Source: Rhizobacter sp. | GTDB taxonomy: Bacteria > Pseudomonadota > Gammaproteobacteria > Burkholderiales > Burkholderiaceae_C | Direction of reading: 5' to 3' | DNA length: 64,000 nucleotides | NCBI GenBank assembly: GCA_046154125.1 | Contig: JBJXEJ010000118.1 | Location: 10,072-74,071, forward strand | Shown here: positions 23,682-36,384 of the stretch, piece by piece | How the letters are laid out: every line of letters begins with the position of its first letter | Position numbering within the stretch: the first letter of the stretch is position 1 | Program-made: the position numbers and the translations under genes | The notes under the pieces: model-generated | The model's input: only the letters and a program-made list of their open reading frames with translations | The model's database searches: none | Told to the model about the DNA's origin: nothing

Positions 23682-24803
23682 GTGAGCGCAGACAAGCCCA
23701 TCTACGTCACCCAGCCCTTCCTTCCGCCGCTGGACGATTTCATTCCGTACCTGCGCGAGATCTGGGACGCGAAGGTGCTGACCAACGGCGGGCCGTTCCA
23801 CCAGCGGCTGGAAGCGGCGCTCGTCGAGCACCTGGGTGTCAGGCATCTGTCGCTGTTCACCAACGGCACGGTCGGCCTGCTGACGGCCTTGCAGACGCTG
23901 GAGGTGACCGGCGAGGTGATCACCACGCCGTACTCGTTCGCTGCGACCGCCCATTCGGTGATGTGGAACAACCTGACCCCGGTGTTCGCCGACATCGATC
24001 CGGTCACCTGCAATCTCGACCCGGAGTGCATCGAACAGGCCATCACGCCGCGAACCACCGCGATCATGCCGGTCCACTGCTACGGCACGCCGTGCGACGT
24101 GGACCGCATCAAGCAGATTGCGGACGCCCACGGGCTGAAGGTGATCTACGACGCCGCGCACGCGTTCGGCGTGCGGTACCGCGGCGAAAGCCTGCTCAAC
24201 CACGGCGACCTGTCGGTGCTGAGCTTTCACGCCACCAAGGTCTACACGACCCTCGAAGGCGGCGCGATCGTCTGCCCCGACGCCACGACCAAGAAGCGCA
24301 TCGACCACCTGAAGAATTTCGGTTTCGCCAACGAGGTGACCGTTCTGGCGGCCGGCATCAACGGCAAGATGAACGAAGTACAGGCGGCGCTCGGCCTGTT
24401 GCAGCTGGCGCATGTCGATCAACTGATCGCACGTCGGGCGCAGATCGCGCGGCTCTACGACGAAGGGCTGGGCTCGATCGAGGGCATCCGCGTGGGACGC
24501 ACGCTTCCGGACGTGCAGCCGAACCACTCGTATTACCCGATCTTCATCGGCGACCGTTTCCCGATCAGCCGCGATGAGGTCTACACCCGCCTGCGCGAAC
24601 ACGGTGTCTATGCACGTCGCTACTTCTACCCCTTGCTGAGCGACATGCCGATGTACCGCGACATGCCCTCGGCGGAACCCGCGAACCTGCCGCACGCGGC
24701 AAGAACCGCACGCGAGGTGTTGTGCCTGCCGATCTATCCCGCCCTGCAGGACGACGACGTGATGCGGGTGATCCAGCTGATCCGGTCCTGTCGGGCAGGT
24801 TGA
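23682..24803 (+). CDS. DegT/DnrJ/EryC1/StrS family PLP-dependent sugar aminotransferase
   Basis: Family layout IYVTQPFLPPLDDFIPYLREIWDAKVLTNGGPFHQRLE with the PLP-lysine context LSFHATKVYT. GTG at 23682 is in frame with ORF 23379..24803. Confidence 0.85.
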   Translation: MSADKPIYVTQPFLPPLDDFIPYLREIWDAKVLTNGGPFHQRLEAALVEHLGVRHLSLFTNGTVGLLTALQTLEVTGEVITTPYSFAATAHSVMWNNLTPVFADIDPVTCNLDPECIEQAITPRTTAIMPVHCYGTPCDVDRIKQIADAHGLKVIYDAAHAFGVRYRGESLLNHGDLSVLSFHATKVYTTLEGGAIVCPDATTKKRIDHLKNFGFANEVTVLAAGINGKMNEVQAALGLLQLAHVDQLIARRAQIARLYDEGLGSIEGIRVGRTLPDVQPNHSYYPIFIGDRFPISRDEVYTRLREHGVYARRYFYPLLSDMPMYRDMPSAEPANLPHAARTAREVLCLPIYPALQDDDVMRVIQLIRSCRAG

Positions 24804-24843
24804 ACCGACGCGCCAGGGGTGTTTGGGCCCAAGGTGATGCAAC

Positions 24844-25653
24844 TCATGGCTGGAACCGGTGATCCAGTTCGTCGAGCGGCTCGCGGGAGATGCTGAAGCT
24901 CGACGTGTCGGGATAGGCGCGGTCGATGAAGCCAGGCTCGGCAAGGTCGTTGAACCGGATGCTGACCGCCACTCGCAAGGCGTCGCCTTCGGGGCTGGAG
25001 CGATGAACGGTGAATGCCGAAAACGCAACCAGGTCACCGCGACGCAAAGCCAGGCGCACCGGCTGCATCGTCAGCGCAGAGTCATGCACTCTGGACCCGC
25101 AGCGAGATACGTCGTAAGGCAACACACCGCCAAGGTGACTTCCCGGGTACATATCCAAGCTGCTGTGCTCTTCACCCACATCGTGCAAGGGAAACCAGAC
25201 CACCAGGCCATTGTGCGAACCCTGCATGACCGGCCACTCCTGGTGAGGCGGACGAATGTTGTACCCACCCTCGAAGTGCAGGTCGGCGGCGATGACGATG
25301 GGGTACGGCTTCAGGGCCACGACGGGATGCTGCAGTCCGAGGTCCCTGAGCACGCCCTGCAACGCCGGTTCAGCCGCGGCGGACAAGACCGCGACATCCA
25401 GTTGCGAGACCTTCAGCGCACTGAGATATCGGTCGGGTGCCTGTTCCTTCAAATCGCGCATGAGCGCTTGGCGCACGGCCAGGGGATCCTCGATCGTGAA
25501 CCGACGCCCCAGCACGTGCGCAGCCTGCAACGCGATGGGTTCAAAAATGGCATGTTCCAGGGCATCGAGGTACCGAGAGGACAGGACCTGGCGCGCGATG
25601 TGAAACCCGTCTCGGCGGTAAGTCATGTTGTCTGTCGCAGCATGCGTGATCAT
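24844..25653 (-). CDS. Phytanoyl-CoA dioxygenase (PhyH) family Fe(II)/2-oxoglutarate oxygenase
   Basis: Typical PhyH start YRRDGFHIARQVLS. Candidate facial triad: PPHQEW (H-x-E) and distal FTVHRS. An alternative start is ATG 25626. Confidence 0.65.
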   Translation of the reverse strand: MITHAATDNMTYRRDGFHIARQVLSSRYLDALEHAIFEPIALQAAHVLGRRFTIEDPLAVRQALMRDLKEQAPDRYLSALKVSQLDVAVLSAAAEPALQGVLRDLGLQHPVVALKPYPIVIAADLHFEGGYNIRPPHQEWPVMQGSHNGLVVWFPLHDVGEEHSSLDMYPGSHLGGVLPYDVSRCGSRVHDSALTMQPVRLALRRGDLVAFSAFTVHRSSPEGDALRVAVSIRFNDLAEPGFIDRAYPDTSSFSISREPLDELDHRFQP

Positions 25654-25676
25654 GGTGAATGTGACGGTTTCAGGTA

Positions 25677-26130
25677 TCAGCGTGGCGAGCGAACGACGAT
25701 CTGCCCGGGGACTCGATCATTCCCGTGGCGAAGAAGCGGCAAGCCGGCAAACTGCTCCAGTGCCCATCCCACTTCGTCGCCGCCCGGCAGCGCTCCGACG
25801 CGGGTCGCCCCGGTAAATCGACCGTTGTACTCGCAGATCGCAAACCGGCCATCGACGCACCGCTGGCAATGCACATTCAGCGGACCGCGGCAACGCAGTG
25901 CAAAGGCAGCACGCGTGCGCCAGACCCGGCCATGGTGCCCGAGGCGCAAAAGATCCTCGCCAGCCCGAGCCGGTGCGTCACCGCCAGGCTGACCTTGACG
26001 CCGAATTCGTGCGGGCTGCGGGGCCTGAAATGCGCAGAGCTTGCTCTTGTCCTTCGGTCGCTCAGCTTGCCGCCGGCGCTGCCCAATCGAGCCGAGGTGC
26101 CGAAGAGGCTGGCGCCTTCGGCACGCGACA
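25677..26130 (-). pseudogene. Remnant of an ATP-grasp ligase gene (3' half only, frameshifted), paralogous to 27175..28230
   Basis: ORF 25677..26213 ends GPLNVHCQRCVDGRFAICEYNGRFTGATRVGALPGGDEVGWALEQFAGLPLLRHGNDRVPGQIVVRSPR. By my count this matches the intact gene tail at 50 of 69 residues. Further upstream, similarity continues only in another frame (LGLARIFCASG versus LALRVARTFSEAG). There is no N-terminal half. The 5' limit is approximate. Confidence 0.7.
25680..25886. repeat. Direct repeat copy A (ATP-grasp 3' end, diverged)
   Basis: Nucleotide and protein similarity to 27199..27405 in the same orientation, for example GGCAAACTGCTCCAGTGCC and AATCGACCGTTGTA. I estimate 75-80% identity by eye. 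Confidence 0.75.
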
Positions 26131-26212
26131 TGCAAGAGTTGCTTTGCGCCGAGACTTGTCGGCTGAGCAATTTCGCGCCGAATTGGAGTTGCGCCTTGAA
26201 CGCTCACCCCCA

Positions 26213-26234
26213 TGATCCACCGAATGGTGGATCA
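26213..26234. other. Perfect 9-bp stem hairpin at the high-GC/low-GC boundary
   Basis: TGATCCACC-GAAT-GGTGGATCA, followed immediately by AT-rich sequence upstream of the low-GC gene. Confidence 0.6.
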
Positions 26235-35760: not shown

Positions 35761-35793
35761 CAGATCAGGACCGTCGATGCGTTTGCAGGATTG

Positions 35794-35821
35794 AAAAAGG
35801 GCAGCCTGCGCTGCCCTTTTC
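35794..35821 (-). terminator. Intrinsic terminator/attenuator just after pilA
   Basis: The minus strand reads GAAAAGGGCAGC-GCAG-GCTGCCCTTTTTCAA: a 9-bp GC-rich stem followed by a T-run. It lies 18 nt after the pilA stop and before the OTase start. Confidence 0.65.
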
Positions 35822-35838
35822 ACATTGAGACATTGAAA

Positions 35839-36324
35839 TCAGGTGCGGCACGAACCCGGGAGGTACTTTGGCAACATTGGCTTCGCGCCACCTGGGGCGC
35901 ACGTCCATGCGTAAACCGACTTGCCCATGTCTTGTGCGGCCCTCATTGCAATGCCCGCATCGGTCATCGGCGTCATCACGATCGAAGAACCGTCGACTTG
36001 TGCAATGTTCTGCGCAGTGATGGTCACCACGCCGTCGGCGTCGGTCTGCACAGACTTGACGTACTTCGACTGACCGTTGGCTGCCGACACATCGGTTTCG
36101 CAACCCCAGGCGCCCGACAAATCCGACGCGCCGGAGGCGGCCGACTGATACACCTCGGTGATCGTGGTGCGGCAGGCCGAACCCGCCAGCACGACTTCAG
36201 AAACCTTGGCGCGGATCGTGTAGTCCTGATAAGCCGGCAGCGCGACCGCTGCCAGGATGCCGATGATCGCGACGACGATCATCAATTCGATGAGGGTGAA
36301 ACCTTGCTGGATGCGACGTTGCAT
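35839..36324 (-). CDS. pilA: Type IVa major pilin
   Basis: Class III signal and cleavage site [35 protein letters not shown]. Four Cys residues with a C-terminal disulfide-loop region ([20 protein letters not shown]). AAGGAG lies 6 nt upstream of the ATG at 36324. Confidence 0.95.
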
Positions 36325-36368
36325 GATGAGCTCCTTGTTGGATCGGGGGGTGAAGACGAAGGAGTAGT

Positions 36369-36384
36369 TGCAGGCCGCATGCCA
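36369..36384 (-). promoter_or_regulatory. Sigma-54 (RpoN) -24/-12 promoter of pilA
   Basis: The minus strand reads TGGCAT-GCGGC-CTGCA, compared with the consensus TGGCAC-N5-TTGCA. It sits about 45 nt upstream of the pilA ATG. Confidence 0.7.

Follow-up and report, generated by a model that had tools for sequence, protein, structure and literature searches.

A run of genes between the major pilin gene pilA and moaC, on a 64,000-nucleotide stretch of a Rhizobacter sp. genome (contig JBJXEJ010000118.1, positions 10,072 to 74,071; hereafter the window), encodes two putative PglL-type oligosaccharyltransferases (OTases), a TfpX/TfpZ-family membrane protein and a cassette comprising a glycosyltransferase of family GT41 and several putative sugar-tailoring enzymes. 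Does this run form a single system for modification of the type IV pilin, as was proposed in a previous reading of the DNA made without database searches (hereafter the sequence-only reading)? Our analysis favors a different answer, which we put at a probability of roughly 0.55: two protein-glycosylation systems are neighbors in a slot that lies between pilA and moaC and is prone to recombination. The region appears to split into two layers, pilA-OTase1-TfpZ-OTase2 and the GT41 cassette, and a single system fits poorly with the distribution of these layers, as the former is common in genomes without the GT41 cassette and the GT41 module occurs apart from it, most often by flagellin genes.

The gene run consists of open reading frames (ORFs) with gene-like codon-position G+C, in a window of approximately 67% G+C, and the family calls are based on Pfam, NCBIfam and PDB searches:

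36369-36384, minus strand: sigma54-type promoter-like motif TGGCAT-N5-CTGCA (TGGCATGCGGCCTGCA), 45 nt 5' of the pilA ATG
35839-36324, minus strand: pilA, type IVa major prepilin (Pfam Pilin and N_methyl)
~35794-35821, minus strand: intrinsic terminator hairpin after the pilA stop, with a 12-bp stem including GGGCAGC/GCUGCCC, then a U run
34090-35760, minus strand: OTase1 (Wzy_C and Wzy_C_2; PglL_A at 22 bits, below the cut-off of 25)
33256-34023, minus strand: TfpX/TfpZ (FimB)-family protein, hereafter TfpZ (NF041437, 214 bits against a cut-off of 200)
31273-33132, minus strand: OTase2 (Wzy_C 79 bits, Wzy_C_2, PglL_A 38 bits)
29104-31215, minus strand: GT41 glycosyltransferase with multiple TPR domains (PF13844, 149 bits)
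28424-29086, minus strand: NeuD/PglB/VioB-family sugar N-acyltransferase, hereafter NeuD (TIGR03570, 173 bits against a cut-off of 160.8)
27175-28254, minus strand: ATP-grasp ligase, "carbamoyl-phosphate-synthase-like" (NF009402 with E = 8e-36, below cut-off; weak ATP-grasp_3 and PylC-like_N)
26308-27198, plus strand: Amidohydro_2-family metal hydrolase (PF04909, 74 bits; 45.5% G+C)
25670-25892, minus strand: 3' remnant of an ATP-grasp gene (80% identity to 27189-27411)
24844-25653, minus strand: PhyH-family Fe(II)/2-oxoglutarate dioxygenase (PF05721, 45 bits)
23682-24803, plus strand: DegT-family aminotransferase (PF01041, 354 bits)
23101-23634, plus strand: moaC

All genes in the run were found at the positions and in the orientations listed by the sequence-only reading, and its family assignments were borne out by the profile searches. 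Two details were corrected: moaC runs in the same direction as the DegT gene, which is convergent on the minus-strand cassette genes, and the start of OTase1 is placed at the ATG at 35760 because the terminator hairpin sits right after the pilA stop. The co-oriented minus-strand genes are indeed closely spaced, with intergenic distances of 17–169 bp, and as the same gene order was found in three independent contigs, this is not a chance run of ORFs.

The window comes from a metagenome-assembled genome (MAG), its GT41 protein being 100% identical to one of a Rhizobacter sp. MAG. It was compared to genomes of Rhizobacter, Rubrivivax and Comamonadaceae and to metagenome loci (locus labels Lnnn). 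The backbone sucD-terC-STK-PP2C-FHA-MBL-pilA-[variable]-moaC-M48 (STK, Ser/Thr kinase) is conserved across the fetched genomes of these three groups, and pilA orthologues hold the same position in most fetched Burkholderiales loci. The earlier suggestion, made with reference to Burkholderia, that the extra genes are insertions into a conserved backbone is borne out for these three groups, which are those that the comparison covered. The slot next to pilA varies in content and can be empty or hold TfpZ, OTase1 or both. A scan of the genome collection with the OTase1 alignment gave 68 loci, which were mapped with a tblastn panel and included the following arrangements:

OTase1-TfpZ-OTase2: L009-L012, and L020 from the isolate Rhizobacter sp. 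SG703
OTase1-OTase2: L013, L014, L017, L019 and L033
TfpZ-OTase1-OTase2: L015 and L016
OTase-TfpZ: L052, L057 and L061 from Paracidovorax and Acidovorax
one OTase only: many loci

At loci encoding OTase1 homologues with at least 40% identity (n = 13), a second PglL-type (OTase2-like) gene adjoins in 11 cases and TfpZ in eight. OTase2 is the sole OTase in an Albitalea locus (L157, pilA-FimB-PglL-moaC), and homologues with approximately 45% identity or more adjoin moaC in every locus that holds one and reaches moaC. The GT41 cassette was not found in any locus fully covered to moaC, except in close relatives of the window. In other genomes, the interval from the PglL-type gene to moaC is occupied by unrelated insertions. 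Judged by N-terminal sequences only, these encode a lipoprotein, a LysR regulator, a DTW-like protein or a toxin-antitoxin pair; as none of these looks sugar-related, they say nothing on the cassette. The propensity of the slot to recombine is illustrated by L036:11768-17950, where three PglL-type ORFs follow pilA and one copy is apparently truncated and duplicated around a VapBC-like toxin-antitoxin pair, again by N-terminal sequences.

At this position, the GT41 cassette is confined to the window and three close relatives, L001, L002 and L003, in four different arrangements, with the GT41 orthologues of the relatives in the same place (76–79% identity). L002 has the order terC-STK-PP2C-FHA-MBL-pilA-OTase-FimB/TfpZ-OTase-GT41-ATP-grasp-PhyH-WbqC-hexapeptide transferase, with DegT and MoaC encoded on the opposite strand; L001 encodes GT41-NeuD-ATP-grasp, with the amidohydrolase, DegT and MoaC on the opposite strand; and L003 encodes GT41-NeuD-ATP-grasp, followed by the amidohydrolase on the opposite strand and then by a WbqC fragment, a hexapeptide transferase and DegT. 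DNA comparison showed positions 26308-31300 of the window to be collinear with L001 and L003, and positions 24843-25894 to be collinear with the ATP-grasp 3' end and PhyH gene of L002, in which the PhyH orthologue (81% identical) overlaps the end of the ATP-grasp gene. The window cassette is thus a chimera of an L001/L003 type and an L002 type, with the 223-bp ATP-grasp remnant as the recombination scar. Its genes have a G+C content of 62–66%, except for one with 45.5%, compared to 70% in the neighboring genes. This low-GC gene, encoding the amidohydrolase, had been regarded as a foreign insert; a private insert was rejected, as the gene is part of the shared cassette in both L001 and L003 (82–84% nucleotide identity). 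The GT41, NeuD, ATP-grasp and DegT proteins share 76–91% identity with the orthologues of the relatives. By sequence similarity the cassette is also chimeric in origin, with a DegT of the flagellin-clade type discussed below and a NeuD nearer to those of L006, L007 and L077 (60–64% identity).

The two OTases share 32% identity over the core and differ in length (556 aa for OTase1 and approximately 619 aa for OTase2) and in the number of transmembrane (TM)-like segments (8 and 11, respectively). Both score above the cut-offs for Wzy_C (39 bits for OTase1 and 79 bits for OTase2; cut-off 31.7) and Wzy_C_2 (74 and 55 bits; cut-off 28.5), and the sole PDB match of both is 9rmk (E ~1e-11; E = 5e-11 for OTase1), whose sequence we take to be that of Neisseria PglL. 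When OTase2 was aligned with 9rmk, FDHTHNLML paired with FTHSHNIVL and HSLLEYPLWYAYFLLP with HSMLEYPLWYVYFLIP, so that the HxHN and HSxLEYPLWYxYFLxP motifs are conserved; the counterparts of these motif residues in OTase1 are invariant in the alignment of its homologues. The Wzy_C_2 and PglL_A domains are present in PglL/PglS enzymes and absent from TfpO/TfpM, and also set the former apart from WaaL (PMC12645811), while TfpO/TfpM proteins form a size class of 420–470 aa (PMC9829042). Judged by domain content and size according to these published criteria, both enzymes are predicted to be PglL/PglS-class O-oligosaccharyltransferases and not TfpO/TfpM, with OTase1 falling outside the latter class by its length and its Wzy_C_2 domain. 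This is in agreement with the two periplasmic PglL-type candidates proposed by the sequence-only reading.

The two enzymes differ greatly in distribution. The OTase1 subfamily is small (107 homologues found), and no description of it was found in the literature; at least 3641 homologues of OTase2 were found, of which the best 120 listed are 52–86% identical. Substrate-specific OTases are typically encoded beside their substrate, and general PglLs are not (PMC12645811). Because of this pattern, OTase1 may be a pilin-linked OTase and OTase2 a general PglL. Two candidate lines of support for this division of labor were tried and rejected, and both results weigh against it. A role of OTase1 as the hypervariable partner of the pilin was true only for L002, where the OTase adjacent to pilA is 35% identical to OTase1 of the window, compared to 80% for TfpZ and 76% for OTase2; apart from this replacement, OTase1 and OTase2 have diverged at similar rates among the relatives, and hypervariability does not point to OTase1 as pilin-specific. 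The rule of a C-terminal Ser/Thr site known for TfpO/TfpM could not be carried over to OTase1 either: the window pilin ends in ...PGSCRT, and in the 11 pilins encoded beside OTase1 homologues of at least 40% identity the last residue is Gly, Arg or Lys in 10 cases and Asn in one, and no site is predicted.

The pilin itself has the leader MQRRIQQG, followed by FTLIELM, and a C-terminal disulfide loop. The sigma54-type promoter proposed before pilA is present as a motif in an intergenic position appropriate for a promoter, although the pattern is weakly specific, with three matches in the window versus 0.56 expected. The hairpin after pilA was missed by a consensus terminator scan and picked up by folding (fold energy -22.1 kcal/mol, z = -3.08), and matches the attenuating terminator of Pseudomonas aeruginosa pilin-accessory cassettes (PMC11841053). 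The TfpZ gene begins 1.8 kb downstream of pilA; its product has three TM-like segments and matches positions 1-239 of the 240 in the NF041437 profile, and the L002 orthologue has the Pfam FimB domain (PF27166). TfpX/Y/Z proteins promote pilus assembly in P. aeruginosa and are dispensable for modification (PMC11841053), which argues against the part in pilin modification that the sequence-only reading had given to this protein. Directly upstream of pilA (36544-40460, minus strand) are genes for a Ser/Thr kinase and a PP2C phosphatase, together with genes for an FHA protein and an MBL-fold protein (class-II cAMP phosphodiesterase-like). The block, whole or partial, recurs in the majority of the loci fetched from Rhizobacter, Rubrivivax and Comamonadaceae, which suggests a conserved regulatory tie to the pilus.

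A scan of ORFs from the whole window, a set picked by length and codon-position G+C that short or atypical genes may escape, gave no phosphoglycosyltransferase, flippase or nucleoside diphosphate (NDP)-sugar dehydratase. The sequence-only reading had noted this absence, which stands for the scanned ORFs, and had concluded that part of the pathway is encoded elsewhere or that the system departs from the PglL paradigm. Since PglL-type systems borrow lipid-linked glycans made elsewhere, a locus without flippase and initiating transferase is normal for them. In Burkholderia, the O-glycosylation cluster is situated away from pglL. The glycan is there encoded by a dedicated cluster of five genes (PMC12645811).

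The individual proteins of the cassette were compared to characterized enzymes. The GT41 protein lacks TM-like segments and is predicted to be soluble. Its best PDB match is SPINDLY (SPY) from Arabidopsis (362 bits, residues 108-690, spanning TPRs and catalytic domain), a protein O-fucosyltransferase in which K665 and H495 are essential (PMC9715652); these residues align with K511 and H345 of the window enzyme. Furthermore, Y587, invariant in 19 homologues, aligns with SPY Y744, which has been proposed to narrow the donor pocket so that the sugar must be smaller than GlcNAc (PMC9715652), the corresponding residue in human OGT being Cys917. As Tyr587 occupies the donor-selecting position of SPINDLY, the donor is predicted not to be GlcNAc but a sugar smaller at C2, which is consistent with the linked 6-deoxy-amino-sugar genes. 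The DegT protein is most similar to DesI, a dTDP-4-keto-6-deoxyglucose 4-aminotransferase, both in NCBIfam (DesI-like, 312 bits; PseC second, 229 bits) and in the PDB (2po3, 255 bits; the PseC entry 2fn6, 140 bits), followed by ArnB-like enzymes and perosamine synthases. For NeuD, the best PDB matches are the acetyltransferase domain of Neisseria PglB and then PglD, PerB and VioB, and its closest enzymes acylate the 4-amino group of 4-amino-4,6-dideoxy sugars. Together, DegT and NeuD would make an N-acylated 4-amino-4,6-dideoxyhexose. The remaining proteins, the ATP-grasp ligase, the amidohydrolase and PhyH, had only uncharacterized or remote PDB matches, among them 2pn1 for the ATP-grasp ligase and, as the best match of the amidohydrolase, the uncharacterized Bordetella protein BB4693. 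The combination of a GT41, an aminotransferase and an acyltransferase or ATP-grasp enzyme corresponds to the gene content of flagellin-glycosylation islands.

The neighborhoods of GT41 homologues were used to consider the target of the enzyme. A metagenome scan yielded 80 loci with GT41 homologues (34–53% identity). Flagellin is encoded within 10 kb in 16 of these, DegT in 27 and WbqC in nine. The DegT proteins are mostly 60–64% (range 53–70%) identical to that of the window, and their genes usually lie directly downstream of the GT41 gene; in L007 and L159 (homologues with 45–52% identity), GT41, DegT and a hexapeptide transferase form a tight three-gene unit. A major pilin gene is found beside a TPR-GT41 gene at three metagenome loci, L098, L137 and L141 (three in 0.94 Mb). 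Against our own rough expectation of approximately 0.3 loci per Mb for either gene type, the enrichment is about 50-fold for flagellin and about 10-fold for major pilins, in both cases from small counts. The GT41-DegT-acyltransferase module thus appears to be a self-contained unit elsewhere, located most often beside flagellin genes. Owing to these homologous modules and to the flagellin island of Acidovorax, flagellin is by neighborhood the single likeliest target of the window GT41; the pilin is a live alternative, exosortase substrates are a third possibility, and other exported proteins are conceivable. At L004:5919-11530, the GT41-DegT(-hexapeptide transferase) module lies beside exosortase XrtH and an IPTL-CTERM protein, and at L159:3457-14350 near a PEP-CTERM protein; such substrates could be GT41 targets.

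Two of the pilin-bearing loci have a layout of their own. At L137:6068-16827 and L141:3383-14210, the major pilin gene is preceded by a conserved ORF of ~98 aa and flanked by two or three TPR-GT41 genes. By eye, the neighboring genes seem to encode a GtrA-like protein and a family-2 glycosyltransferase as well as large polytopic membrane proteins. Such loci would represent another type of pilin locus with GT41 genes.

In the model of two adjacent systems, in which the protein targets of the two OTases and the GT41, and likewise the sugar, are predicted from families, topology classes, synteny, mosaic structure and distribution, pilA would be transcribed from the sigma54-type promoter, and the terminator would attenuate read-through into the downstream genes. 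OTase1 and OTase2 would move undecaprenyl-PP-linked oligosaccharides, whose synthesis is encoded elsewhere in the genome, to Ser/Thr residues in the periplasmic domains of proteins, with the rare OTase1 next to pilA serving the pilin and OTase2 acting as a general PglL, as in Acinetobacter, and TfpZ would aid pilus assembly, not modification. In the cytoplasm, DegT would aminate an NDP-4-keto-6-deoxyhexose that comes from elsewhere, N-acylation and decoration of the 4-amino group would fall to the NeuD-type enzyme, perhaps together with the ATP-grasp and PhyH proteins, and the SPINDLY-like GT41 would put the monosaccharide directly on Ser/Thr of a protein recognized by its TPRs, independently of a lipid carrier.

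Several observations weigh against flagellin as the target. In a rough neighbor-joining tree without support values, the window GT41 forms a clade with L007/L008, L077 and L004-L006, apart from a large flagellin-linked clade. No flagellin was found by tblastn within 10 kb of the members of this subclade or in L001-L003, and no Pfam flagellar families were found among the ORFs scanned across the 64-kb window, to which the flagellin tblastn itself was not applied. The nearest subclade members instead lie in type II secretion/type IV pilus-like clusters beside an exosortase (L004, L006) or by PEP-CTERM/TonB-receptor genes (L007, L159). The window cassette is not near flagellar genes and comes directly after the pilin and PglL genes, with the GT41 gene co-oriented and 57 bp downstream of OTase2, an order kept in four contigs, so that co-transcription with the pilin genes is possible. 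Cyanobacterial GT41 enzymes are required for pilin glycosylation: the soluble GT41 Ogt of S. elongatus is needed for glycosylation of PilA, and 38% of cyanobacterial genomes (n = 201) have ogt beside pilin genes (PMC9306852). Together with the three metagenome loci that combine a major pilin with TPR-GT41 genes, these findings would suit an integrated two-compartment system, in which the GT41 sugar is attached to the prepilin, or to a different protein of the pilus, no later than during its insertion into the membrane, and the periplasmic OTases subsequently transfer a glycan en bloc. We nevertheless regard this as unlikely, since the cytoplasmic leader of the inserted prepilin contains neither Ser nor Thr, most genomes with the same pilA-OTase1-TfpZ-OTase2 core lack the cassette, and the association with flagellin is much stronger among the sampled GT41 homologues (16 loci versus three); even in cyanobacteria, direct transfer to the pilin is putative. 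That a cytoplasmic module of flagellin-island type was recruited to the pilus, so that one pilin is glycosylated in two compartments by two mechanisms, is similarly doubtful; if true, the connection of Ogt and pilin in cyanobacteria would have its first counterpart in a proteobacterium.

The tailoring enzymes DegT, NeuD, ATP-grasp and PhyH might alternatively feed the lipid-linked glycan of OTase1 and OTase2, in the manner of Neisseria pgl and diNAcBac, with GT41 unrelated or elongating. The cassette physically adjoins the OTases, the PglB entry that best matches NeuD is annotated "pilin glycosylation protein", and one GT41 homologue (L160) adjoins polysaccharide genes, including one for a small phosphoglycosyltransferase (Bac_transf) and one for a PglF-type dehydratase (Polysacc_synt_2). 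The DegT protein, however, is nearest to DesI and to enzymes of the perosamine type, whose substrates are 2-hydroxy sugars, with PseC scoring lower in both databases; the scanned window ORFs include no phosphoglycosyltransferase, flippase or dehydratase; and elsewhere DegT and the acyltransferase travel with GT41 in loci without any OTase. All characterized GT41 enzymes that we know of glycosylate proteins, none lipid-linked glycans, and we consider this supply route quite improbable. The least probable of the explanations is that the cassette is a decaying passenger, acquired horizontally and eroded by recombination, with a non-working pathway. Erosion is visible in the ATP-grasp pseudogene fragment of the window, in the truncated WbqC of L003 and in the presence of four gene sets in four relatives, and the PglL-moaC slot does take unrelated insertions in other genomes. 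Yet the remaining cassette ORFs are full length, with GT41, NeuD, ATP-grasp and DegT conserved as given above and gene-like in codon-position G+C, and the GT41 catalytic residues are intact. Reshuffling of this type is typical for surface-glycan loci under diversifying selection.

The preferred reading of two adjacent systems was also compared to described loci. Literature searches found no account of the full combination, as the sequence-only reading had surmised; each element and each pairwise combination has precedent, and the full combination alone is new. The presence of two OTases has already been described in Acinetobacter, with one next to the pilin gene: medically relevant species carry pilA-tfpO and a general pglL, and A. 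baylyi carries pglS beside comP in addition to pglL (PMC9829042, PMC12645811). The window resembles this arrangement in that the pilin gene is followed by an O-OTase, a second OTase of the general PglL class is present in the genome and the presumed pilin-specific enzyme is linked to its substrate. It differs in that both OTases, with predicted specificities, have the PglL/PglS architecture with Wzy_C_2 and not that of the short TfpO/TfpM type, a TfpZ gene lies between them and the host is a betaproteobacterium. In P. aeruginosa, pilin cassettes of group V comprise pilA-tfpZ and those of group IV pilA-tfpW-tfpX (PMC11841053). There too, a TfpX/TfpZ-family membrane protein follows the pilin gene and the content of the slot varies between strains, but TfpZ occurs alone and the group V pilin is unmodified, whereas in the window TfpZ is flanked by two PglL-class OTases.

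For the cassette, the closest parallels in gene content, as opposed to the Fgt/Fcs/Fst sequences themselves, are flagellin islands. In the Fgt/Fmt/Fcs/Fst island of Acidovorax avenae K1, a glycosyltransferase gene is accompanied by genes for a sugar transaminase and a carbamoyl-phosphate-synthase-like protein (PMC4622738), and in P. syringae, where vioA/vioB/vioT occur with fgt1/2, modified viosamine caps the flagellin glycans (PMC3927599). As in the window, a glycosyltransferase that acts on proteins in the cytoplasm is combined with a sugar C4-aminotransferase and an N-acyltransferase, and with an ATP-grasp protein that is carbamoyl-phosphate-synthase-like; in contrast to these islands, the window cassette lies away from flagellar genes and its GT41 belongs to a sister subclade without flagellin neighbors. 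The link between GT41 and a pilin has its precedent in cyanobacteria, where soluble TPR-GT41 enzymes encoded near a major pilin gene (Ogt/OgtA) serve PilA glycosylation or accumulation. Ogt takes UDP-GlcNAc, unlike the window GT41 with its SPINDLY-type Tyr and 6-deoxy-amino-sugar genes, and stems from another phylum; the available text of the study describes no PglL-type OTases beside cyanobacterial ogt (PMC9306852).

The locus is of value mainly because it allows the substrate and the donor of a SPINDLY-like GT41 from a bacterium to be tested, and so bears on the long-standing question of which proteins bacterial OGT/SPINDLY-like enzymes modify and which sugars they use. It is compact, as the donor pathway adjoins the enzyme and only two candidate substrates, pilin and flagellin, are obvious. 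If the division of labor between the OTases is correct, a pilin-linked and a general PglL-class OTase would occur together in a second lineage beyond the Moraxellaceae, that of Rhizobacter, Rubrivivax and their relatives, and glycoengineering could draw on the OTase1 subfamily for new O-OTases with substrate specificity. The four mosaic versions in four close relatives indicate rapid change at one chromosomal hot spot, which is variation of the kind expected under phage or host pressure.

Two further observations concern genes outside the pilA-moaC slot. The interval from terC to sucD contains a cytochrome P450-like ORF (41170-42750, minus strand), a long ORF whose start is tentative because it overlaps sucD, and L158 carries a P450 gene at the same terC-sucD position. 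Beside a gene for PBP1C (12986-15148, minus strand), an alpha-2-macroglobulin gene (15145-21309, minus strand) is split into two same-frame ORFs by a single in-frame TAA at 18058-18060, reflecting either a pseudogene or an assembly error.

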